In this document: positions 1,391 through 52,403 of the stretch, piece by piece | How positions within the stretch are numbered: position 1 is the stretch's first letter | Layout of the letters: every line of letters starts with the position of its first letter | Sequence record: PZ445437.1 | DNA from: a phage | Length of the DNA stretch: 64,000 bases | Reading direction: 5' to 3' (one strand) | Position numbers and translations under genes: made by a program | The notes under the pieces: model-generated | The model's database searches: none | What the model was told of the DNA's origin: nothing | The model's input: only the letters and a program-made list of their open reading frames with translations

Positions 1391-1771
1391 TCACTTAGTC
1401 AAATTTTTTACACATGAATTATAAGAATTCACTACATACTCCATCGGAGCATTTTTACCAGTACGCCATTGGTAATTATTAGCCCAATTAGCCCAAATTT
1501 CGGCGCAGTAGTTTTCAATTTTTTCTTCGCGTGTAATTACATCCGAATTACGATATGCTTGAGCAGATTCATCTGGACGAATAGCTTCGTCAAAATTCGC
1601 CTGCATTTGTTCTACTGTTTGCTTTGGAGCTTCTTTATAACACTTGACATTAGGATTATAAAACTTGCTTGAACAGTTTACAATTTTTCCTACATCAGAC
1701 TGATTTACTACCGGTCCTTGAGCCACACAACCAGTAAGACCTAATGCAATAACCAAAATAGCGATTTTCAT
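1391..1771 (-). CDS. Predicted lipoprotein (126 aa)
   Basis: N-terminal signal peptide with lipobox LTGC; multiple Cys; imm.1 position. Confidence 0.6.
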   Translation of the reverse strand: MKIAILVIALGLTGCVAQGPVVNQSDVGKIVNCSSKFYNPNVKCYKEAPKQTVEQMQANFDEAIRPDESAQAYRNSDVITREEKIENYCAEIWANWANNYQWRTGKNAPMEYVVNSYNSCVKNLTK

Positions 1772-1783
1772 AATAATTTCCTC

Positions 1784-2035
1784 TTAAAACTTAACAAATA
1801 ACTTTAAAGCATCTTCAGTTTTAATTCCTTTTCTTACACCCATAACAGAAATTGGCTGTGACTGAAATTTTCCTTTACCATTATAAATTTCTAATCCAGT
1901 AACCATTCCATTTTGTTCTATAATACCGTAAGTGTTACCTTCATTTTCAAATTCTTTAACTTTAAAGAGTTTATTAGCTTTTTCTGCGTTAACAACTTTT
2001 AAATTTTGAATAAAATTAGTTTGAATATTTTTCAT
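1784..2035 (-). CDS. Hypothetical protein (83 aa)
   Basis: ATG preceded by GGAGG RBS and early promoter. Confidence 0.5.
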   Translation of the reverse strand: MKNIQTNFIQNLKVVNAEKANKLFKVKEFENEGNTYGIIEQNGMVTGLEIYNGKGKFQSQPISVMGVRKGIKTEDALKLFVKF

Positions 2036-2063
2036 TTTGTGTTCCTCCGTAGTTGATAGTTGT

Positions 2064-2092
2064 ATAGTACCATGGAAGAACAGTCTTGTAAA
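2064..2092 (-). promoter_or_regulatory. T4 early-class promoter (-35 TTTACA, 17-nt spacer, -10 TACTAT)
   Basis: Minus-strand GTTTACA..17 nt..TACTAT; one of a dispersed family of near-identical elements. Confidence 0.5.
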
Positions 2093-2180
2093 CAGTTTTG
2101 TGAAATTTTTTTAGGGAATTCTAAAGGTCCAGAATCATCTGTTTTTCATAAGTATAGATTTATATTACTTGTATGAAAAA

Positions 2181-2196
2181 GGGACCCGGAGGTCCC
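2181..2196 (-). terminator. Intrinsic terminator after gene 43
   Basis: GGGACC-UCCG-GGUCCC hairpin followed by U-run on minus strand, 14 nt after gene 43 stop. Confidence 0.6.
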
Positions 2197-2209
2197 TAGA
2201 TTTATTCTA

Positions 2210-4906
2210 TCAGCCAAACAGGAAGTCTAACGAAGCTTTTTCTTCATAGTCCATACCAGCCGATTCACACATGCCTGCAAGCGGTTTAACAAACGATTTT
2301 TGGAACAAAGTTGAGTAGTCAATCCAAGACAGTACGTCAGAACGAATTTCTTTTGGAAGTTCTGTGCCCGACGGCCAAGCAATGCACTTTTCACCAAATG
2401 GATTTCCTTCACGCAATGGAAGAACCATTACTTTATTTCCATCCAAAATTGGAGCTACACCTAAACCGCTAACAGCTCGACGATAAGTTAGCACCCCACG
2501 AATATGGAACGGGCATTTAAATCCTGGCCAACCTTTATCATCATATTTCGCTATATCGTTCGCAGTTTTTACTTCAGCAATAACTTTATAGTCAAGTTGA
2601 CGATATTCTTTCTCGAAGTTCTTGTAATATTCTTGGACAGACTCTTCACCTTCCTGAAGAATACGACGAATACTTTCTTCGAGAGCTTCTTGGACCGCTT
2701 TAGGCGTTGAACTCTGCTGAGTTTCCATACCCATGATTTTTAGATGCGGTTCAGCAAATCGCTTATCTTCCATATCATAAACGTTCAGAGCATAACGCTT
2801 TTTCGCTTTCCAAAATCCACCGACGCCCTTTGAACCAAGTGGAGGGCAAGAAATAGCTTCACGGTCCATATGCATCAGATGCTCGCGGTTATTCATATAA
2901 TCACATAACTCACGATATGCAACATCAATCATAGGTTCCATCTTTTTCTTACCGAACTGATTCATGAATTCAACTAAATCGTTCTGCTCTTTGAATCGGT
3001 CAAGACCAACTTTTTCAATAACTTTATCTACACAAACATATACCGAATCAGTATCACCTGCTGCAATGAAATCTTCGCCATTAGTTCCGCATACTTTATT
3101 CAGATATTCATTAATTTTACGAGCAATCCACTGAATACCAACTTGGCCGAAAATTGTGATAGCAGTAGCATTTCGCAAATCATAGTAACGGAAATGAATA
3201 TTACCAAGAGCACCATAAAGACTGTTAATAAGAATTTTACGGTTCAGCTGATTTGTGTTAGCAAGTGTAGCTGCTTTTTCACATTCTTCAATCAAACTAT
3301 TGAGAACAGATTCAGTATAATTCGATAGTTCATTTAAGAAATCATCACTGAACTTAACATATCGTTCAACTTCTGGTTTAGTTGAACAAGACCCTGCGCC
3401 TTTCATAATAATCTTTTTAATAGCTTCGGCATTCATTTCTTCAGCGAACATTTTCTTTTTCCAATCTTTACGCTGGAAAAATACTTTAGCGATTTCCTTT
3501 GGAATGATACCTTCTTGATGCTTATCATACATCCATCCATTCGGAGAACAAGAATATTCATCACTTGGTTTAGGAGCTGTTCCTGCGATATATTCATGAA
3601 TTGGATGAACTTTAAACTGACCACGAATAGTCTCAGGACTAATGTTAACCTGACGAATAATGCTCGGATACAGAGACGTCAAGTCAAAACTCATAATATA
3701 TCGACGAGCAATTGGTTTAGGTTCAAACACAAATGCACCCGGAAAACTCTGTTTAACATGCGAACCTTGTTGAGGAATAACCTTATGTTCACCTTTCAAT
3801 GAGTTAAAAATAATGGCATCCCAGGTTTTAATAGGACTCATTACACCGGAAAAAGGCATTTTAGCGTAATAAGACATACTTAAAACTAGATCGATAAACC
3901 CGCGAATTTTATCAATTGCTTGAACTGATTCTACGTCAATGATGTTATAACTAATGTATCGTTGATGATTAGTCTCACGAAGTTTATTAATAGGACCGTC
4001 GTATGGTAATTTACCTTTTTTGGTTTCATGTTGAGCAACTGATTCCAAAGAGAATGACGGCAAATTAGTAAAAGCAAATTTCTTGTACAAATCTAAATAA
4101 TCAAGAATAGATACACCATCAATAGAATAAATTTCTTTGCTGCCGTACATATTTTGAATTAGTTTAGATTTTACTCGACCGATTGGAGAGAAGCGTTTCA
4201 TACTACGTTCACCGAGAACCATTTTAACGCGATTCATGATATACGGAACGTCAAATCCCTCAATATTCCAACCAGTAAAAATAGCAGGTCGTTTCTGTTC
4301 CCAGAGATTGATATATTCCATGAGCATATCACGCTCATTATCGAATGGCATATAAATTACTCGGTCAAGAATTTCTTGAGGAACTTCATCACCACCTTCA
4401 CAGTCAAGCTTAGCAGCTAACTTTGCATCCCATTTTGATACTGAACCATACATTGAATTCAAAAGGTCGAAAACATAAAAACGATCATCAATTGAATCGT
4501 AATGAGTGATAGCATCAATTTCATATTCAGCTTTCATTGGGTCAGGAAATTTATCACCAGTAACCTCAATGTCACAGTTAGCTACACGAACAAATTTTCG
4601 GTCATAAACAATTTCTGAACCGTATGTATCACTGATATAAGCGAGTTTAAAATCGTTCATACCGAGAGCTTCGAGACCGATGTCTTCCATTCGTTTCATC
4701 CAATCTCGAGCATCTTTCATTGATGGAAATTTTTGAGGAGCGCAGTTTTTACCATAGATGTCTTTGTACTTTGACTCTTCCTTACAATGCCTAAACATAG
4801 TTGGAAGATATTCTACTTCACGAGTACGTTCCTTTCCATTTTCATCAATATAACGTTCAACAATATTATTTCCGACTGTTTCAATAGAGATATAAAATTC
4901 TTTCAT
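2210..4906 (-). CDS. 43: DNA polymerase (family B, with 3'-5' exonuclease)
   Basis: 898 aa, identical length to T4 gp43; exo and pol motifs (e.g. YGGA.., DTDS). Confidence 0.97.
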   Translation of the reverse strand: MKEFYISIETVGNNIVERYIDENGKERTREVEYLPTMFRHCKEESKYKDIYGKNCAPQKFPSMKDARDWMKRMEDIGLEALGMNDFKLAYISDTYGSEIVYDRKFVRVANCDIEVTGDKFPDPMKAEYEIDAITHYDSIDDRFYVFDLLNSMYGSVSKWDAKLAAKLDCEGGDEVPQEILDRVIYMPFDNERDMLMEYINLWEQKRPAIFTGWNIEGFDVPYIMNRVKMVLGERSMKRFSPIGRVKSKLIQNMYGSKEIYSIDGVSILDYLDLYKKFAFTNLPSFSLESVAQHETKKGKLPYDGPINKLRETNHQRYISYNIIDVESVQAIDKIRGFIDLVLSMSYYAKMPFSGVMSPIKTWDAIIFNSLKGEHKVIPQQGSHVKQSFPGAFVFEPKPIARRYIMSFDLTSLYPSIIRQVNISPETIRGQFKVHPIHEYIAGTAPKPSDEYSCSPNGWMYDKHQEGIIPKEIAKVFFQRKDWKKKMFAEEMNAEAIKKIIMKGAGSCSTKPEVERYVKFSDDFLNELSNYTESVLNSLIEECEKAATLANTNQLNRKILINSLYGALGNIHFRYYDLRNATAITIFGQVGIQWIARKINEYLNKVCGTNGEDFIAAGDTDSVYVCVDKVIEKVGLDRFKEQNDLVEFMNQFGKKKMEPMIDVAYRELCDYMNNREHLMHMDREAISCPPLGSKGVGGFWKAKKRYALNVYDMEDKRFAEPHLKIMGMETQQSSTPKAVQEALEESIRRILQEGEESVQEYYKNFEKEYRQLDYKVIAEVKTANDIAKYDDKGWPGFKCPFHIRGVLTYRRAVSGLGVAPILDGNKVMVLPLREGNPFGEKCIAWPSGTELPKEIRSDVLSWIDYSTLFQKSFVKPLAGMCESAGMDYEEKASLDFLFG

Positions 4907-10695: not shown

Positions 10696-11711
10696 TGTGT
10701 TGCCTCTACATATAGCTGGTTTGCATATTGAATAAGTGCTTCACGGTCAGAATCAGTGATGTCTGGAATTGCATTAATGTATTCTTCCATCAACGTCTGA
10801 AGAGATTGAACTTCAACTTCTTCACTGTCATCTGACTCGACAGAGTTATCAATTTTTGACACAACTCGTAATGAATGCACAACTTTTTCTAGTTCAGATT
10901 CGAACTTCGTTAGATTTTTGTCTACTTCAGTTACTATAACACGTACTGATAGATTTGTAAAATCTTTATAGTCAATTTTTCCTTTAAATGGATAATGAAT
11001 TCTACGATGCCAGGTAGTGTTGTTTGGAATAAATTCCATTCGTTCTGTTTCTGTATCAAACATCCAGAACCCACGAGGGTCATTCTCGTCACCTGCAGTT
11101 AGTGTCCATGGTGTCCCAATATATCTGACGTTAGCAGCCTCAGAGATAGTATGGAAGTGACCAGACCACACTTCTTTATAAGTCTTAAGGAAATCAGGTT
11201 CAAGACCATGAGATTTCATTCCTTTATAAAAATAAAATCCGTTCAGTTCCCAGTGACCAACGCAAAAAGAAGCAGATGAAGTTTTGATGTGTTCAAGAAT
11301 TTCACCAGTATTTTCTTCACACATCCAAGGAATTAAATCAATTAAACATCCGTCAAAATCTACTGTAGTAGGCTTATCATATACTTTAACATTAGGATAT
11401 TTAGCCAAAAGCTCAGTAGAGGCATTTGGATGCATTACATTTTTATAGTGGAGATCGTGATTTCCTACAATAGTGTGTAATGTAATTCCAGCATCATCAA
11501 GCGTTTGAACTATTTCACGGGCAAACTCCATAGTTTTATGTGTGATCGCTTTTCTCACATCAAAAATATCACCATATTGAATCCAGGTAGTAATTCCATT
11601 TTTCTTAGAATATTCTATTGCTTGTTTAATTCCATCAATTTGAATACCGCGAATCCACTCATCATCAGCTTTAACGCCTAAATGCCAATCACCCAAGTTT
11701 AGTATTTTCAT
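10692..11711 (-). CDS. 47: Recombination endonuclease subunit, Mre11/SbcD-like phosphoesterase
   Basis: 339 aa (T4 gp47 length); calcineurin-like motifs GDWH, GNHD. Confidence 0.93.
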   Translation of the reverse strand: MKILNLGDWHLGVKADDEWIRGIQIDGIKQAIEYSKKNGITTWIQYGDIFDVRKAITHKTMEFAREIVQTLDDAGITLHTIVGNHDLHYKNVMHPNASTELLAKYPNVKVYDKPTTVDFDGCLIDLIPWMCEENTGEILEHIKTSSASFCVGHWELNGFYFYKGMKSHGLEPDFLKTYKEVWSGHFHTISEAANVRYIGTPWTLTAGDENDPRGFWMFDTETERMEFIPNNTTWHRRIHYPFKGKIDYKDFTNLSVRVIVTEVDKNLTKFESELEKVVHSLRVVSKIDNSVESDDSEEVEVQSLQTLMEEYINAIPDITDSDREALIQYANQLYVEATQ

Positions 11712-12312
11712 GGTGTCTTTTCCATCCTAATTTAGCTGCTTTTGAAACTAGTTCTTTAATTTTTCCTTTTGTCCATTCAGGACCAGGAGGTTCATGACAT
11801 AACATTTGCTTAACTCCGTTATTATACCATTTTTTACCTTTATTATGTGATGAAGCTTTAAATTTATTTGACCTTCCTTTTACATAACCTTCTGGAATAT
11901 AAGGCAAAAAGGCAGATTTTCCTGTTAATGGATCATGTGAATGTATATTTCCTTTACAATTATGAGAACCATATAATGGATGATTTTGTCCTTTATTATC
12001 TCTTCCAAATGAACCTTTTGGAGCAGCATATGACATATTAAAGAATAATGGATTTTTAACTGCATCATGCAATCGTTGATAATATAACTCGCATTTAATA
12101 GCTTCTTCACGCGTATCAAATTCAGCTAAAATGCATGAATCAAATAAGTGAGGATTATCTGAAAGCTCTTTATTATAAATTTTCTTATACTTTTTAGATA
12201 AAACTGAACCATGATATCCAGCTAAATGCCTATCTAAAGACGTAGATCCAATATAAAAAGGAGGAAGTTTATCTCCACTATATATTGTTAAATAAGTTAT
12301 ATATTTTTTCAT
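11689..12312 (-). mobile_element. Freestanding GIY-YIG (Seg-type) homing endonuclease gene, 207 aa
   Basis: N-terminal YITYL..(x10)..FYIGS GIY-YIG motif; NUMOD-like GxNHPLYG repeat; 3' end overlaps gene 47 start by 23 nt. Confidence 0.65.
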
Positions 12313-17417: not shown

Positions 17418-17700
17418 GAGAAATAATTCCTTGGTAAGCCCAATAAGGAGGATTAACAGAATCCTCACCAGAGTTTTCTTCAGGAAAATAAACCTGGATA
17501 ACGAAGCCGGATTCATCAAAGGTAAAATAAACCGTAGGCAGTTCACCTAACAAATCGGCACGAGCGTTGATTTCTTCGAGGTCTTGTTCACGTCCAGCCC
17601 AGAAGCTTGGGTTCAGACTACATTCATAGAAATAATAGTCATTACCGAACATATCAAAACCATTCCAACTCTCTACTACATACCGCTCAAAACTAATCAT
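17389..17700 (-). CDS. Hypothetical protein (103 aa)
   Basis: ORF; acidic. Confidence 0.45.
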   Translation of the reverse strand: MISFERYVVESWNGFDMFGNDYYFYECSLNPSFWAGREQDLEEINARADLLGELPTVYFTFDESGFVIQVYFPEENSGEDSVNPPYWAYQGIISRGTKLELKE

Positions 17701-17702
17701 AA

Positions 17703-17918
17703 TTAATCCTTTTTATCAAGAACCGCATTCAGCTTGTTAGTAATTTTATCCAGACGCTCATTGAACTCACTAGAAGATAAGCCCTTTTCTGGAGAAATTA
17801 AACTAATCACGAAAAATATAGCAATAAAAGGAATAAGGAAAATAGCTCCAACTGCCATAAACAGAAAGAATGTTACAGTTGTAAGAAAATCAGCTAAACC
17901 TTTACGAAATTTATACAT
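17703..17918 (-). CDS. Hypothetical membrane protein (71 aa)
   Basis: One TM segment. Confidence 0.45.
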   Translation of the reverse strand: MYKFRKGLADFLTTVTFFLFMAVGAIFLIPFIAIFFVISLISPEKGLSSSEFNERLDKITNKLNAVLDKKD

Positions 17919-18033
17919 ATTTTACCCTTAATTGATTAACCAAGCATTGATAAGCACTAAACTATATTGCGAATAAAATTCTGGACCAAAATGAAAAATC
18001 ATATCATTTATAGTATCCATAATGTAATTCAAT

Positions 18034-18504
18034 TTAATCATGTGTCCACACCCCATCGGTATTTGACCAAAGTCGCTGATTATCTGATCCTCGCCACAGC
18101 TTTTTAGTCGGAAGATTTTTCTCATACTTCCCATCAATAATAACATCAACATATTTAAGCATTTCTAGTTGTTTAATATCTTCAAACTTATATCCTGTCC
18201 ACAACCAAATGCTTTTATTGGGATAAAGATTTTTAATAGTTTGAACCACAGAGTGAATCACGTCTCTGTTATCAGGATAAAGAGGGTCACCTCCGGTTAT
18301 AGTCAATCCTTCTATATAATCATTATTCAAACATTCAATTAATTGTTCTAGTGTTTCACCAGTGAATGGAACACCATTTCTAGCATTCCATGTTGATTTA
18401 TTATAACACCCTTCGCATTTATGCAAACAACCTGTAACGAAAAGAACTGTCCTGCATCCAGGACCATTAACAAAGCAGCACGGGTATATTCTGTCATAAT
18501 TCAT
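18034..18504 (-). CDS. nrdG: Anaerobic ribonucleotide reductase activating protein (radical SAM)
   Basis: 156 aa (T4 NrdG length); CxxxCxxC cluster motif. Confidence 0.9.
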   Translation of the reverse strand: MNYDRIYPCCFVNGPGCRTVLFVTGCLHKCEGCYNKSTWNARNGVPFTGETLEQLIECLNNDYIEGLTITGGDPLYPDNRDVIHSVVQTIKNLYPNKSIWLWTGYKFEDIKQLEMLKYVDVIIDGKYEKNLPTKKLWRGSDNQRLWSNTDGVWTHD

Positions 18505-19333
18505 TTATATATTTCCAATTATAGCCTTCAACACTTTTACGTTCGCCATTTAAACATTTTAAAATATTTCCTTTGCTAGAAATATTAAAATATTTTGCTG
18601 CGTCTGGTATATAATTAAATGTTTTTAAAAGAACACCATCTTTATATGCGCCAAATAAATTAAGAGTATATTTTTCTCGAAGACGCTGATGTTTCCTTTT
18701 CATAACCTCAGGATTTGCATACGCCAACTTCAATGAATTTCTGTGTTTTTCTTTTACTTCAGGTTTTTGCATTGCTAACTTAGTTAGCCTGGAAATTTTA
18801 TTTCTAACTTCGTCAGTTTTCATTGCATTTGACAAATTTAATAAAGTTTTATTTCTAACTTCAGGTTTTTGCATTGCTAGCTTAGTTAGTTCTCTATGTC
18901 TTTTTCTAAAATCGTCATCCTTCCATATATTTTTCGATAATTTTGACATAGAGCGGTGAAATAATTCCTTTTCACTGGAATACAATTTAAAAATTTCATC
19001 CAATTCATCCGCATTAAATCTATCGGTATTCGAGTTTATCATTCTATGAAAGGCATAACACATTTTACTATTGCTTGTTTTAGCTAAATAGTAATGAGCT
19101 AACGCATGGTCATAATATGACAAATTAACAATATTCCATTTATCTGTTTTATATTCAGGAAATATAGATTTGGGAAGCACGTGATGTGCTTCCGTTTTTC
19201 CTTTTATTTTAGGATTATTATAATTTTTTGTTATCAAATCAACATATGACAATAGTAAATCATTATTTTCTTCAAATATTAAAGATAATTTATCATTCAC
19301 AAAATCGCAAGGATAAAATCTATCATAATTCAT
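18494..19333 (-). mobile_element. Freestanding HNH homing endonuclease gene (279 aa, Mob-like)
   Basis: HNH motif EAHHVLPKS..N..YDHALAHYY; tandem NUMOD-like repeats (TKLAMQKPEV x2); ATG overlaps nrdD stop; first 13 codons resemble nrdG. Confidence 0.8.
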
Positions 19334-21147
19334 TGGTGTTTAACCCTATGCATGATTTCTTTATTTTTACCGAGATTAAATCCGCGTTCGTTCGGATTTC
19401 CCAAATAACCACATGTTCTTCTTATTGTGTTCATCTTTTTAGGATCAGTTTCTCCACAAATAGAACAAACAAATCCGTTTTCAGTAGGAGTCATTTCATG
19501 GGTACTTCCACATGTAAAACATTTATCTACTGGCATATTAACACCAAAATAATCTAAATGTTGTGCAGCATAATCCCATACGGCCTCAAGACCCTTTAAG
19601 TTATTTTTCATATCAGGAAGTTCAACATAAGAAATGTGACCACCTGTCGCAATGAAATGATATGGCGCTTCACGAGAAATCTTTTCAAACGGAGTAATAT
19701 TTTCTTCTACTGAAACGTGGAAACTGTTAGTGTACCAGCCTTTATCGGTAACATCTTTTACACTTCCATATTTTTCTGTATCAAGTTTACAGAAGCGATA
19801 ACAAAGGTTTTCAGCAGGAGTAGAATACAAACTAAAAGCAAACCCAGTTCTTTCAGTCCACTGTTTAAGACGAGCATTCATTTTAGTTAAAATTTCTCGT
19901 CCAATATCACGACCTACAAGAATATTCAATTCGTGAATACCAATGTATCCTAGAGACACTGAACTTCTGCCATTTTTAAATAACTCAATTATATCGTCAT
20001 CAGGTTTAAGACGAACCCCGAATGCACCTTCTTGGTAAAGAATAGGAGCAACAGTTGCTTTAACTCCTTTTAAGGAACTAATTCTACACATCAAAGCTTC
20101 AAAACACAAATCCATTCGCTCATTGAACAATTCGATAAATTTCTGTTCATTGAACTGTGTTCCAATATAAGAATCTAATGCGATACGAGGAAGATTCAGT
20201 GTTACAACACCAAGATTATTACGTCCATCAAGAATTTCATTACCAGTCGAATCTTTCCATACGCTCAAGAAACTACGGCAACCCATCGGAGAAACAGGAA
20301 CAGATGAACCAGTGATAGCTTTATTGTTCTTAGCTGAAATAATATCAGGATACATCCTTTTGCTTGCGCACTCTAGAGCAAGCTGTTTAATATCATAGTT
20401 CGGATCGTCTTTATAAAGATTAACACCTTCTTCAACAAACATAACAAGCTTAGGGAAAATAGGAGTTATCCCATCACGACCAAGACCTTTAATACGATTT
20501 TTCAGAATTGCTTTCTGAATCATTCGTTCAGTCCAGTCAGTTCCCGTACCAAATGTAATTGTTACAAAAGGCGTTTGTCCGTTTGAACTAAAGAGAGTAT
20601 TTACTTCATATTCATAAGCTTGGAATGCATCGTATACATCTTTTTCTGTTTTAGATTGAGCATAATTCAGTGCATCGGCGATTTGCCATTTTTCTGCATC
20701 CTCAATATGTTTTGCATAGGTGCGTTTAACATAAGGAGAAAGTACTTTATCTACATTAGCAAAAGTCGTTCCGCCGTATTGATGGGAAGCAACCTGTGCA
20801 GTAATTTGTGCCATAATTGCAGTAGCAACTCCAATTGATTTAGGAGTTTCAATCTGCGCATTACCAAGCTTAAATCCGTTCTCAAGCATTCCTTTTAAAT
20901 CTACTAAACAGCAATTAGTAAAAGGCAATGATATACTGTAATCTAAATCATGAAAATGAATTAATCCAACATTATGGGCATTTACAATATGACTTGGAAG
21001 AATACGACAAGCGATATGTTTAGAAACAATACCGGCCATTAAATCTCTTTTTGTTGGAAAGACGCGAGAATCTTTGTTGGCGTTTTCTGTATTTAATTCT
21101 TTATCTTTATTTGAAATAAAATTTAAAACATCTTTTTCTAAAGACAT
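19330..21147 (-). CDS. nrdD: Anaerobic ribonucleoside-triphosphate reductase (glycyl radical enzyme), uninterrupted
   Basis: 605-aa continuous ORF (T4 NrdD spliced length); C-terminal glycyl radical region and Cys-rich zinc site. Confidence 0.95.
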   Translation of the reverse strand: MSLEKDVLNFISNKDKELNTENANKDSRVFPTKRDLMAGIVSKHIACRILPSHIVNAHNVGLIHFHDLDYSISLPFTNCCLVDLKGMLENGFKLGNAQIETPKSIGVATAIMAQITAQVASHQYGGTTFANVDKVLSPYVKRTYAKHIEDAEKWQIADALNYAQSKTEKDVYDAFQAYEYEVNTLFSSNGQTPFVTITFGTGTDWTERMIQKAILKNRIKGLGRDGITPIFPKLVMFVEEGVNLYKDDPNYDIKQLALECASKRMYPDIISAKNNKAITGSSVPVSPMGCRSFLSVWKDSTGNEILDGRNNLGVVTLNLPRIALDSYIGTQFNEQKFIELFNERMDLCFEALMCRISSLKGVKATVAPILYQEGAFGVRLKPDDDIIELFKNGRSSVSLGYIGIHELNILVGRDIGREILTKMNARLKQWTERTGFAFSLYSTPAENLCYRFCKLDTEKYGSVKDVTDKGWYTNSFHVSVEENITPFEKISREAPYHFIATGGHISYVELPDMKNNLKGLEAVWDYAAQHLDYFGVNMPVDKCFTCGSTHEMTPTENGFVCSICGETDPKKMNTIRRTCGYLGNPNERGFNLGKNKEIMHRVKHQ

Positions 21148-21959
21148 AATTCTAATTTATCCTTTTGAAATTCTTCGTCTAAATATGGGTTCCAACCCAT
21201 TTTAAACCTTTTGATGAAATTATCAATTCTAAATTTCGGTAAGTTTAAATCCGCAAAAATAGATGATTTACTTTTAAAATCTGGACTTAAATAATCATAT
21301 AAAATTTCTGCGTATTTTAACCATAATATACAAGTACCAGATTTAATTGCTCTCGGAGTTTTCCAAGGTTTTACACCATACATCGGATTTCCGCTTCCTT
21401 TATGCCTGATAGAAGATGAAATTCCAATTTTAATTTTAGCTTCCTTTGTATGCGAAAATCCACGATGTGGATTTTCTTTCCAGTATTTTTTAGAAGCTTC
21501 TGATATTTTCTTTCTGGCTAAATTAGTATGATGCTTTCCATAAAATCCATGATTTTTGCCTTTATTACGATTTCTTTTAATCATGGTTATTGATTGCTTT
21601 TCTCTAGTTTCTTTAGAAGGAGAAATACCATATGTCGTAAATTTGCCATCAGCATATGCTAAATTAAAATACTCTTTATTCCATACATCTTTTTCTATAT
21701 TCTTTTGAAATTCAGCTTCAATGCTAGTTATTTGTTCATCTCCGACTAATTGAAAATATAATATTTCAACTTTCGGCGTTTCTTTCAATAAGGCTTTTTG
21801 AAATTCGGAAGATGACGAAGACGAATAATAAAATTTACCATTTTTATCAATAATATTCGTTCCATCAAAAGTGCAATTGGTTTTACTTCCAATGTAATAA
21901 TATGGTGGGGTTTTAGCATTAATTCTATTAATAAATGATAGTTTATATACTACATTCAT
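21138..21959 (-). mobile_element. Freestanding GIY-YIG (Seg-type) homing endonuclease gene, 273 aa
   Basis: VYKLSF..(x9)..YYIGS GIY-YIG motif; GKNHGFYGKHH and GSGNPMYG NUMOD-like repeats; paralogous to 11689..12312; ATGA overlap with gene 49 stop. Confidence 0.6.
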
Positions 21960-22429
21960 TTTAAACTCTTTCTAAGCTGCTTCTTAAATGAAGCTATTAA
22001 TTGTGTTTTAGTGTCAGATTCATTATATTCAAATCCTCTTTGAAGCATCTCAGCCATCATTTCCTCTTTTCCTAAACGAGAAAATTCCTTTGATTTATCT
22101 CCAACGAAGTTAGGGTGAATATTATTTTGGGTGTAATCGGATTTTAAATAAGTAAGTAAATTTTCTAACCATTCAAGATAATCAACTCCTTGTCCCTTTA
22201 AGCCAGAACGATTAAATTTATGCTTCATTTGACCTTCTGCGGCATTGCAGAGATTACAAAGCAATCCACGTACCTTTCCTGCTTTTGGTCCATTTAATTC
22301 ATGGTCATGGTCGAGGTGATTAGCTTGAACATCAGGATTTAGTTCTCGTTGGCAAATTAAGCATTTACCATTTTGTGCATCATAAAATTTCTGTTTTTCT
22401 TCTTTATATAATTTGCCAGTCAATAACAT
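21956..22429 (-). CDS. 49: Endonuclease VII (Holliday junction resolvase)
   Basis: 157 aa (T4 endo VII length); zinc/His box CLIC...HLDHDHELNG. Confidence 0.9.
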   Translation of the reverse strand: MLLTGKLYKEEKQKFYDAQNGKCLICQRELNPDVQANHLDHDHELNGPKAGKVRGLLCNLCNAAEGQMKHKFNRSGLKGQGVDYLEWLENLLTYLKSDYTQNNIHPNFVGDKSKEFSRLGKEEMMAEMLQRGFEYNESDTKTQLIASFKKQLRKSLK

Positions 22430-22471
22430 AATAAAACCCTTACCTTAAATAGATAAGGGTATTTATTATTT

Positions 22472-22957
22472 TCAAGTATTGTAAAACATTTGATTCAATC
22501 GCTTATATTGCCGAATCTTTTGGTCAGAAAAAGAAATTTGGGTTTCAAGCCATTCAATATATTCTGCCGCAGCTTGCATCAAATTTCCTTCATAGCCATC
22601 GTTATTTTCTTGTGCAGCTAATTTAGCTAATGCGTATGGAATACGTTCACCTTGAAAATCGGCTTTAGGCTTCTGAACAACTTGATTAGTTCTCTCTACA
22701 ACTTCTTCAATTTCGCCATTTTCTACTGATTCAGTATTCCACAAGCACCAATACGTAATTGGCTTATCGTAGATGTTAATAATCTTTCCGTCGGAAAGTT
22801 CAATTTCAACAATTCCAGTATCAGGTTCTATATCATCTTCACATTCTTTTGCAAGTTCACGAACTTTAAAGACAGTACCTGCGCTAAGTTCCGGCCAGTA
22901 ATTACATAGCCCTGTATCAGCACGATTAATTCTAAACCACTTATCTACTGTAATCAT
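22472..22957 (-). CDS. pin: Protease inhibitor Pin-like protein
   Basis: ATG at 22957 gives 161 aa (T4 Pin length); position upstream of 49. Confidence 0.6.
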   Translation of the reverse strand: MITVDKWFRINRADTGLCNYWPELSAGTVFKVRELAKECEDDIEPDTGIVEIELSDGKIINIYDKPITYWCLWNTESVENGEIEEVVERTNQVVQKPKADFQGERIPYALAKLAAQENNDGYEGNLMQAAAEYIEWLETQISFSDQKIRQYKRLNQMFYNT

Positions 22958-23079
22958 GTCCCATCTCCATATCAATTAAGTCATTTATCGTTGGTTCATT
23001 ATATACTGTTTCTTCATCAGTGTAAACCGGTTCTTCCGGCTCTGGTTCTACAGTTTCCCATCTAGACGCCCACCAAGGT

Positions 23080-42806: not shown

Positions 42807-43457
42807 TTATATATTGTTAATTTGATTTAGAATTCTTTTTGCTTGAGTATGACTTACGCCAATATGCTTAGCATATTTAGATAATTCACCACGCTTAGAA
42901 AAATCATATAATTTAGAAATTTCTATTCTTCTTTTTCTTTCATCCACAGAAACTTTTGCTTCGTTTGCTTTTGCTATTTTACGTTTAGCTTCTTGAGAAT
43001 GAGTTTTACCAGCAAAGCCATTCTTCATTAATCCATTTGAAGACCATCCTTTTAATTTTCCGTTAGAATGTGCCTTTTTAACACCCAATGAAATTAATTC
43101 GCGTTGCTGGTCTGTCATAGGATAATTATTTATATGATCCCATCCACCTTCACCGCCAAGTTTTAAATTATACACATCTGGTCTATTTAAAAACTCTTCT
43201 GTAACAATATTTTTCTCGGCTTCAAGCATAGATTCTTTATCATCAAAATACTCTAATATTTCTTTAGAAAAATTTTCTATACCATACTTATCTTGGGCTC
43301 TTTTTAATAATTTACCAGAACCCATATATCCATCATCTAAATTTTCGGTAGAATGCACACCAATATAAATTTTATTATTAATTTTATTTGTTATTTTATA
43401 AAGATAAAAATGCATATCAGTCCCTAATAAAGAACTGAGCGTCTCACGACGAGTCAT
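42807..43457 (-). mobile_element. segB: GIY-YIG homing endonuclease SegB-like, inside tRNA cluster
   Basis: FYLYKITNKINNKIYIGVH...DDGYMGSG GIY-YIG motif; located between tRNA-Gly and tRNA-Ser as segB is in T4; probable true start at internal Met (43415). Confidence 0.8.
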
Positions 43458-51331: not shown

Positions 51332-51826
51332 ATGGAAGGTTCTTCTATCGACGTCACCTTTACCGCTCAATTAGAAACAGGTGAAACGTTAGTATCTATA
51401 AATATAACTAGTTACGAAGAAACTCCTGGGGTTTTAGTAGAAGAAAATCGCTTATATGGAACATATGAATCTGTGTTTGGATTTGGAAATGACGCGTTGA
51501 AATATCGTTTAGGCGATGAATTTAAAACTTCTGCTTCATGGGAAGAACTTCCTACTGATTCTGATACTCAGTTGTATTTGTGGAAAGCTCCTCAGAATCT
51601 CCAGAAGACATTCACTTACGAAGTAACATTAATATATGACTACCAAGAACAAAGTGAATCTGGAGGTTCTGGTAGTAATTCTAGGTCATCTTCTGATACT
51701 ACTGAACCAACAGATCCTCCTGCTCCAGTAAGAAAAACTCTCGTTAAAAATTATACTAAAACTATAGTTGGAAATTGGAGTCGTTGGGCTAATAAACTGA
51801 GAGAATATGTCTATGCAAGACCATAA
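51332..51826 (+). CDS. Hypothetical protein (5.1 position)
   Basis: ATG at 51332 with GGAG RBS (track ORF begins 51269 inside gene 5). Confidence 0.5.
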   Translation: MEGSSIDVTFTAQLETGETLVSINITSYEETPGVLVEENRLYGTYESVFGFGNDALKYRLGDEFKTSASWEELPTDSDTQLYLWKAPQNLQKTFTYEVTLIYDYQEQSESGGSGSNSRSSSDTTEPTDPPAPVRKTLVKNYTKTIVGNWSRWANKLREYVYARP

Positions 51827-52403
51827 ATATTTTTATTTGTATTCAATAACTAATAAAACAACAGGAAAAATTTATGTAGGCGTCCACAAAACTTCAAATT
51901 TGGATGATGGGTATATGGGTTCTGGCGTTGCCATTAAAAATGCCATTAAAAAATATGGCATAGATAATTTTTATAAGCATATTATAAAATTCTTTGAATC
52001 TGAAAAAGCTATGTATGACGCAGAGGCAGAAATAGTCACAGAGGAATTTGTTAAATCTAAGAAAACTTATAATATGAAACTAGGCGGTATCGGTGGCTTC
52101 CCAAAACATAACACAGCGGGTGCTAAAAATGGATTTTACGGTAAATCTCATTCGCGTGAAACTAGATTGAAAATTAGCATTAAATCGTCTAGAAAAAGAG
52201 GGCCTAGAGGGCCTAGAGGTAAAACTCTGAAGATGTGTGGCGCCAATAACCCAAGGTATGGCAAAATAGCCCCTAATGCTAAATCTGTTATTATCAACGG
52301 CGTTTTATATAAAAGTATTAAAATCGCAGCTAAAGCTCTTAATATAAATTATAGTACCTTAAAGGGGCGAGTTAAAGCGGGGTATTATAAATGTCAGGAT
52401 TAA
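51807..52403 (+). mobile_element. GIY-YIG homing endonuclease, SegC-like (198 aa)
   Basis: YFYLYSITNKTTGKIYVGVH...DDGYMGSG; clear paralogue of the segB-like gene; sits between 5.1 and 5.4. Confidence 0.75.

Follow-up and report, generated by a model that had tools for sequence, protein, structure and literature searches.

The window analyzed here, a 64,000-nucleotide (nt) stretch of phage sequence (record PZ445437.1), is that of a T4-like myovirus of the genus Tequatrovirus whose closest record is AndreasVesalius (95% query coverage, 98% identity). Between gene 49, which encodes endonuclease VII, and the anaerobic ribonucleotide reductase gene nrdD, it carries a 273-codon (822-nt) open reading frame (ORF), and we propose, with a probability of roughly 0.75, that this ORF is an active free-standing homing endonuclease gene that homes at the 49/nrdD locus. 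The predicted protein resembles T4 SegG, and its gene is always accompanied by a foreign version of nrdD nt 1 to 225 (the block), which is a putative cleavage-immune replacement of the target. This block is the most informative feature of the locus, and it was overlooked in the initial annotation, which was made from the sequence alone. We consider the odds to be about even that the cleavage target of the enzyme lies inside nrdD nt 1 to 225.

RESULTS

A divergent nrdD 5' block accompanies the endonuclease gene

The nrdD gene of the window is 100% identical to that of AndreasVesalius from approximately nt 240 to approximately nt 990, while identity across the first ~235 nt is 55 to 80%. Over nt 1 to 225 there are 86 differences between the two genes, which is a nucleotide identity of 61.8% and changes 28 of 75 residues. 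In contrast, the other 1,593 nt have 23 differences, which is an identity of 98.6%. The G+C content is 0.289 for the block, 0.285 for the endonuclease gene, and 0.35 to 0.36 for nrdD. When five loci that have the endonuclease gene are compared with five that lack it, there are 83 fixed differences between carriers and noncarriers, all of which are in nrdD nt 4 to 225; gene 49 and nrdD nt 226 to 536 contain no such differences. The block is invariant among the five carriers, and both of its flanks are mosaic, with patterns of single-nucleotide polymorphisms that are common to both classes. A strictly linked block, mosaic flanks, and the presence of the cassette in two genera (see below) are what is expected of co-conversion.

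Among 50,697 phage records, 50 contain the block (49 at ≥95% identity and 1 at 80 to 90%), and these are apparently the 49 carriers of the endonuclease gene plus a deletion derivative, Escherichia phage OLB35. The first 78 NrdD residues of the block version are 56 to 64% identical to those of each other T4-like genus compared, while these genera are mostly 72 to 83% identical to one another over the same residues, with one divergent pair at 50 to 59%. This suggests that the block derives from an unsampled, more distant lineage. The distal end of the block coincides with a universally conserved coding stretch, PFTNCCLVDLKG, which may be the first place that permits homologous recombination with a recipient.

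The product of the ORF resembles T4 SegG

The PHROG 7504 (SegG family) profile matches the 273-amino-acid (aa) protein in two stretches at 2.4e-34 (T4 SegG itself matches at 1.3e-133). BLASTP comparisons of the kind that the initial annotation had suggested give 40% identity to T4 SegG across residues 1 to 126 (E = 4e-27) and no similarity to I-TevII (E = 1.0). The last 80 residues are collinear with the SegG C terminus (PWKTPRA...GWNPYLDEEF versus RPWKTSRA...GWIPLEDPEY). The Smith-Waterman score for this region is 69, compared with a mean of 25.3 for 2,000 shuffled sequences (standard deviation, 4.6; maximum, 51; z of ~9); when the last 86 aa are compared with the SegG C terminus by BLASTP, there is no match. 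Between the nuclease and C-terminal modules there are ~60 extra residues of NUMOD3-type repeats that are not common to SegG. In a search of the PDB sequences with the family profile, the DNA-binding domain of I-TevI (1I3J) is matched at 2e-5, in the NUMOD3 region; this is the only match, and the I-TevI catalytic domain is not matched. NCBIfam gives a sub-threshold match (2.5e-4) to TIGR01453, a group I intron endonuclease model.

An AlphaFold model built with 26 homologs is confident for residues 1 to 100, where the predicted local distance difference test score (pLDDT) is mostly 93 to 98, and is poor past residue 180. The modeled N-terminal domain has the alpha/beta fold of GIY-YIG enzymes, and the best match of this predicted fold is the I-TevI catalytic domain. 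In the 26-sequence family alignment, the residues of VVY (Y5) and YYIG (Y22 and G24) are invariant or ≥90% conserved, and E81, the counterpart of I-TevI E75, is invariant. The Asn of YFNL, which is in the family consensus, aligns by eye with that of I-TevI GYNIADA (N90). Taken together, the PHROG, BLASTP, C-terminal, residue, and fold results indicate that the predicted protein is a SegG-branch GIY-YIG endonuclease, in agreement with the initial annotation, which had described it as a free-standing endonuclease of the GIY-YIG type.

The initial annotation also described this gene as paralogous to the ORF that lies between gene 47 and a-gt, which encodes a 207-aa protein. The motifs that it quoted are present: the 273-aa protein has PPYYYIGS, GKNHGFYG, and GSGNPMYG, and the 207-aa protein has PPFYIGS and GQNHPLYG. 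The closeness of the relationship, however, does not hold up, as the two proteins have 25% identity over 126 aa (E = 2e-5) and match different families (PHROG 7504 and PHROG 10820, respectively). The 207-aa protein is a distant relative only, and the real close relative of the 273-aa protein is T4 SegG.

The cassette is found at one site in two genera

The 273-codon ORF is present, at 95 to 99.5% identity, in 49 of the 50,697 phage records, which is ~7% of the ~690 related records (≥90% identity), and it is at the 49/nrdD site in each record inspected. Since it is at the same site in these 49 records and is intact in 10 of the 10 alleles compared, with a ratio of nonsynonymous to synonymous polymorphism (pN/pS) of ~0.13 that reflects purifying selection, it is not a chance ORF. 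Among collinear genomes, its presence or absence is a polymorphism at one precise site. The endonuclease gene and block are 94 to 100% identical between the Tequatrovirus carriers that we compared (Shinka, G10400, fPS-2, G8, and the window) and the Mosigvirus carriers (JK42, ST0, phage 55, and one metagenomic contig), while gene 49 nt 1 to 350 of the Mosigvirus carriers is only 68 to 84% identical to that of the window. The window itself combines an AndreasVesalius-type backbone, including its 279-aa HNH gene, with a cassette of the Shinka/phage 55 type (96 to 100% identity to both in each 50-nt interval). This combination is absent from the phage collection, in which the best coverage of window positions 18000 to 22500 is 82%. 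The window thus looks like the recent product of a cassette transfer.

We considered whether the gene 49 side had also been co-converted in Mosigvirus, and we rejected this, since the T4-like last 90 nt of gene 49 are found in carriers and noncarriers alike. Over gene 49 (window positions 21956 to 22429; loci L020, L021, L053, L056, and L057), Mosigvirus and Tequatrovirus are 63 to 85% identical up to approximately nt 360 and 93 to 100% identical in the last 90 nt. This step does not depend on the presence of the endonuclease gene, and nrdD is ~90 to 97% identical throughout. The step near nt 360 therefore indicates an older exchange boundary inside gene 49.

A homolog of the 273-aa protein, itself 273 aa long, is also encoded at positions 4001 to 4822 of a 90-kb contig (L059; ENA ERZ13617658 NODE_202), where it is flanked by gp5 and a 5.1-like gene and lies close to where T4 has segC. 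Its nuclease domain is 56% identical and its C terminus is unrelated; the family therefore occupies several loci with different DNA-binding tails.

Two relatives record a deletion and a probable ectopic insertion

In the Mosigvirus OLB35 (L052; MH992122, marked UNVERIFIED in GenBank), gene 49 and nrdD have no ORF between them. Instead, 22 nt from the beginning of the endonuclease gene, ATGAATGTAGTATATAAACTAT (MNVVYKL), form the start of nrdD and are followed by the block in register. The junction is at positions 2680 to 2770, which correspond to window positions 21120 to 21959, and it is unique in the phage database. Compared with JK42, exactly 812 bp are missing. This junction is a deletion scar, in which the endonuclease gene was lost and the coupling to gene 49, the reading frame, and the block were kept.

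The second relative, L058 (positions 1718 to 4712 of a metagenomic Logan contig from SRR27536177), is a more distant T4-like phage whose gp49 is 64% identical to that of the window. Its gene order is gp49, a 55-codon native nrdD 5' fragment, an endonuclease homolog that is 59% identical and split by a frameshift, and a full-length nrdD. The native fragment is 75 to 76% identical to the L041/L043 type. In contrast, the 5' end of the full-length nrdD is only 47% identical to the native fragment and is closest to the block of the window (64%), and therefore here, too, the nuclease gene brought an nrdD 5' end of its own along. The L058 arrangement looks like an ectopic insertion, and codon 55, where the cassette meets native nrdD, is a candidate for the position of the break.

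Gene order and overlaps at the 49/nrdD junction

The features of the locus, all of which are on the minus strand, are listed in Table 1. As the initial annotation had noted, the ORF lies between gene 49 and nrdD and overlaps both. The TGA stop codon of gene 49 overlaps the ATG of the 273-codon ORF (ATGA) in the sequence AGTTTAAAATGAATGTA, and the nrdD ATG is 10 nt ahead of the TAG of this ORF in the sequence GAATTATGTCTTTAGAAAAAG, which is a 10-nt overlap. In T4 (NC_000866), there are zero genes between 49 and nrdD, and the 49 stop and nrdD start share an ATGA. AndreasVesalius, which also lacks the endonuclease gene, has the same ATGA overlap of 49 and nrdD. The ATGA at the gene 49 stop is thus taken by the start of the endonuclease gene in the window and by the start of nrdD in T4, and the insertion point of the endonuclease gene is exactly the nrdD start codon.

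A scan for sigma-70 promoters found 26, compared with 24.8 expected, which is chance level, and there is no late promoter TATAAATA in window positions 18000 to 23000. We therefore do not claim a promoter specific to the endonuclease gene. A terminator-like hairpin followed by a T run precedes gene 49 directly on its upstream side (window positions 22436 to 22460, minus strand), and a terminator is annotated at the corresponding place in the related records fPS-2 and G10400.

Table 1. Features at the 49/nrdD/nrdG locus, in window coordinates
Feature	Position	Strand	Basis
nrdG	18034-18504	-	ORF table; Pfam NrdG
279-codon gene for an HNH homing endonuclease, in the mobC position (nrdD/nrdG junction)	18494-19333	-	PHROG 655 and 12434
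nrdD, 605 codons, continuous, intron-less, chimeric	19330-21147	-	ORF table; Pfam NrdD
Unoccupied site of the I-TevII intron (nrdD nt 538/539)	20609-20610	-	Aligned with genomic nrdD of T4
Divergent nrdD 5' block (nt 1-225), putative cleavage-immune target replacement	20923-21147	-	Linkage, GC, identity
273-codon ORF, predicted free-standing SegG-family GIY-YIG homing endonuclease gene	21138-21959	-	PHROG 7504, BLASTP
C-terminal SegG-like module (PWKTPRA ... GWNPYLDEEF)	21138-21374	-	Smith-Waterman versus SegG C terminus
NUMOD3-type repeats (~aa 115-195), insertion relative to SegG	21375-21617	-	Pfam NUMOD3, 6.2e-7
N-terminal GIY-YIG nuclease domain (~aa 1-105)	21645-21959	-	
Gene 49 (endonuclease VII)	21956-22429	-	ORF table; Pfam Endonuclease VII

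The nrdD intron and the endonuclease genes assort independently

The T4 nrdD gene is broken after nt 538 by a 1,033-nt group I intron that encodes I-TevII (NC_000866). The nrdD coding sequence of the window is collinear with spliced T4 nrdD. A search of window positions 17500 to 23000 against Rfam at an E value of ≤1 gives no match and, hence, no group I intron, while the same analysis of T4 nrdD, as a positive control, detects the intron (RF00028) at 105 bits. The endonuclease ORF, then, is not inside a self-splicing intron and does not belong to the intron-encoded class. These results confirm the statement of the initial annotation that the window has a continuous 605-codon nrdD that is split in T4, and T4 itself has the intron and no 49/nrdD gene. 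The further statement that endonuclease genes flank nrdD on both sides is also correct, the downstream one being the HNH gene at the mobC position. In fact, every detail that the initial annotation observed is correct, while its interpretation is supported only in part. It implied that the free-standing genes are present instead of the intron, and this is not supported: in Yersinia phage fPS-2, the 273-aa ORF occurs together with the I-TevII intron, and a SegA-E-type gene (PHROG 314) at the nrdD/nrdG junction is a third endonuclease gene. Phage G8 has the 273-aa gene and the intron, and Shinka has the 273-aa gene alone. The intron and the endonuclease genes therefore assort independently.

The exon around the empty I-TevII site (window positions 20560 to 20640, nrdD nt 510 to 590) has several synonymous differences from T4. 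Identity to the T4 exon context is 87 to 88% here, compared with 97 to 100% nearby, which is the usual contrast of intron-plus and intron-minus alleles.

Other endonuclease genes in the window

The window contains at least 5 endonuclease genes. The 279-aa HNH gene between nrdD and nrdG is 99.9% identical to a gene annotated as mobC in Yersinia phage PST, and its product is unlike T4 MobC in most of its sequence. Both proteins end in ...WKY..EL, and in both an HNH-like motif includes a conserved HH pair. The 279-aa protein begins with MNYDRFYPCDFVN, which is a copy of the NrdG N terminus, MNYDRIYPCCFVN, and T4 MobC also begins with MNYDRIY. The HNH/MobC genes therefore appear to have captured the start of nrdG, along with the coupling of this start to nrdD, much as the ATGA was taken over at 49/nrdD.

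The 207-aa ORF between 47 and a-gt (11689-12312, minus strand) has a weak match to Pfam GIY-YIG (3e-4) and a match at 1e-94 to PHROG 10820, which is labeled HNH. In the T4 stretch from a-gt to gene 55, no gene like it is annotated; the 47/a-gt junction is outside of the stretch inspected. The 207-aa ORF is a separate free-standing endonuclease gene. There are also two Seg-type GIY-YIG genes, at 42807-43457 (minus strand) and 51807-52403 (plus strand), which have the motif YIGVH...DDGYMGSG and match PHROG 314 at 1e-55 and 1e-56, respectively.

DISCUSSION

The homing that we propose would proceed as follows. The endonuclease gene would be a promoter-less cassette that took over the ATGA coupling of 49 to nrdD, so that it is read from the gene 49 message through translational coupling, with nrdD translation restarting 10 nt before the endonuclease stop codon. 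In a mixed infection with a relative that lacks the gene, the enzyme would cut the DNA of this relative not far from the 49/nrdD junction; the most probable place for the cut is within the first ~225 nt of nrdD, perhaps in the vicinity of codon 55. The break would then be resected and repaired with the carrier genome as the template, with homology supplied by gene 49 on one side and by the part of nrdD past nt 225 on the other. Such repair would bring in both the endonuclease gene and its divergent nrdD 5' block; the block would protect the carrier from self-cleavage, and nrdD would become chimeric but remain intact. SegG, SegF, SegE, and SegB act in this way in T4 × T2 and T4 × RB30 crosses (PMC2988022, PMC2330249).

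Among these enzymes, T4 SegG (gene 32.1, located between genes 59 and 32) is the closest parallel. Like the 273-aa gene, it is a member of PHROG 7504 with a related nuclease domain and a collinear C-terminal module, and both are promoter-less operon cassettes directly upstream of a presumed target gene. SegG cleaves in the downstream gene, with co-conversion of the flanks (PMC2988022), and by analogy the same behavior would be expected of the 273-aa enzyme. The two differ in that the 273-aa gene is at 49/nrdD rather than 59/32, its presumed target being nrdD rather than gene 32, and in that an insertion of NUMOD3 repeats, which separates the nuclease domain from the C-terminal module, adds 63 aa to its product. 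In addition, the 225 nt of target sequence that accompany the 273-aa gene differ not by a few polymorphisms but very strongly (62% identity).

Other endonuclease genes associated with nrdD are less similar. SegH of phage U5, T4 MobC, and the HNH gene of the window are free-standing genes at the nrdD/nrdG junction, which is the other end of nrdD (for SegH, Sandegren et al. 2005, as cited in PMC2988022 and PMC3653736). Like the 273-aa gene, the genes at this junction are translationally coupled and variable among T-even phages, but they are of the HNH type or the SegA-E type of GIY-YIG (PHROG 314/655) and have a different insertion site. I-TevII, from the T4 nrdD intron, is also a GIY-YIG enzyme, and, as is presumed of the 273-aa enzyme, it targets nrdD, in its case ~310 nt downstream of the block; it differs in being intron-encoded and without detectable similarity, and the two co-occur freely (fPS-2 and G8). 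I-TevI, from the T4 td intron, is intron-encoded as well, with ~21% identity in the aligned catalytic core, and no equivalent of its Arg27 is evident in the 273-aa protein.

Several observations weigh against an active enzyme whose target is in the block. There is no Arg where I-TevI R27 would be expected, and what the equivalent helix shows instead is a Lys (K55) that is mostly conserved; SegG, which is active, has Lys/Arg residues (KQKR) just upstream of this helix. The C-terminal 90 residues are poorly modeled (pLDDT of <50). Neither of the Pfam GIY-YIG models (PF01541 and PF19835) matches the 273-aa protein at an E value of ≤0.1. We considered the silence of Pfam and NCBIfam as evidence against membership in the GIY-YIG family and rejected it, since T4 SegG, a bona fide member, is also unmatched by the Pfam models, which are therefore insensitive to the SegG branch. 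The location of the target is drawn from linkage and from the single contig L058, whose homolog is frameshifted. Finally, the phage database contains no lineage that natively has the block without the endonuclease gene, OLB35 being the only record of this kind, and searches of IMG/VR and the JGI metagenomes for such a lineage detected only further carriers.

It is also possible that the enzyme is active but that its target is the intact 49/nrdD junction, which the insertion destroys, or a site in gene 49, in which case the block is a historical passenger. Intron-encoded endonucleases do become immune merely through an insertion that disrupts their site, and the insertion here is exactly at the nrdD start codon. 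In addition, the low identity inside the block would by itself stop the crossovers that would separate it from the gene, and therefore linkage does not prove immunity. We nevertheless consider this explanation unlikely, since the L058 cassette joins native nrdD at codon 55 and leaves the upstream 49/nrdD junction intact, SegG cuts within its downstream gene, away from its insertion site (Liu et al. 2003, as described in PMC2988022), and OLB35 shed the endonuclease gene yet retained the block. An inactive or decaying remnant, kept in place because nrdD translation depends on it and moved by ordinary homologous recombination, is less plausible still. The absence of an obvious Arg27 equivalent is consistent with a remnant, as are the listing of T4 mobA to mobD and segD as "ND" for activity (PMC2988022) and the loss and decay seen in the OLB35 deletion and the frameshifted L058 homolog. 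However, 10 of 10 alleles are intact with a pN/pS of 0.13, and the catalytic Tyr, Tyr, Glu, and Asn residues are conserved. Moreover, the block is invariant in the five aligned carrier loci while the flanks are mosaic, and the near identity of gene and block in two genera with diverged backbones would be hard to achieve without drive.

Least probable, in our view, is that the protein mainly serves the phage, either as a regulator of nrdD that binds DNA or RNA or as a weapon that excludes competitors, with homing as a side effect. The gene is located at the point of the operon that controls nrdD translation, I-TevI is a precedent for an autorepressor, and the carrier genome gains from the marker exclusion that Seg enzymes cause (PMC2988022). 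In contrast, ~93% of related phages do without the gene, OLB35 deleted it and kept an in-frame nrdD, and the sequence suggests no function besides that of the nuclease and DNA-binding modules.

A homing endonuclease gene active at 49/nrdD remains our preferred explanation. A more specific version of it, to which we would give slightly worse than even odds, is that the mobile unit is a two-part cassette composed of the nuclease gene and a portable, divergent replacement of the first 75 codons of the target that serves as built-in immunity. The two parts would have been kept together over large evolutionary distances (the 59%-identical L058 homolog also comes with an nrdD 5' end of its own), would have moved between genera, and would belong to an enzyme that cuts nrdD near codon 55. 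If this is true, the databases hold every stage in the life of the cassette: invasion (the window), fixation, decay (the L058 frameshift), and precise loss with an immune scar (OLB35).

GenBank records already call this gene "homing endonuclease," and in JK42 it is labeled "SegG homing endonuclease." Our literature search, which did not extend to Sandegren et al. 2005, detected no paper that names or tests the 49/nrdD endonuclease gene. The locus described here is a good instance, found in nature, of a familiar type of mobile element rather than of a new type. None of its main features (the 225-nt chimeric block, the spread across genera, the deletion scar, and the ectopic insertion) would surprise a specialist, but they make the locus a good one to study. 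Together they provide a natural series of empty sites, carriers in two genera, a scar with a presumed immune block, and an ectopic insertion with a displaced native fragment, which is suited to the study of endonuclease immunity, the reach of co-conversion, and chimeric essential genes. The block also explains a mosaic boundary in nrdD that would otherwise confuse the phylogenies and annotation of Tequatrovirus and Mosigvirus. The 49/nrdD junction is a third independent insertion point for endonuclease genes at nrdD, beside the intron site and the nrdD/nrdG junction, and it is a further sign that, in the T-even phages, selfish nucleases have hot spots in the ribonucleotide reductase genes.

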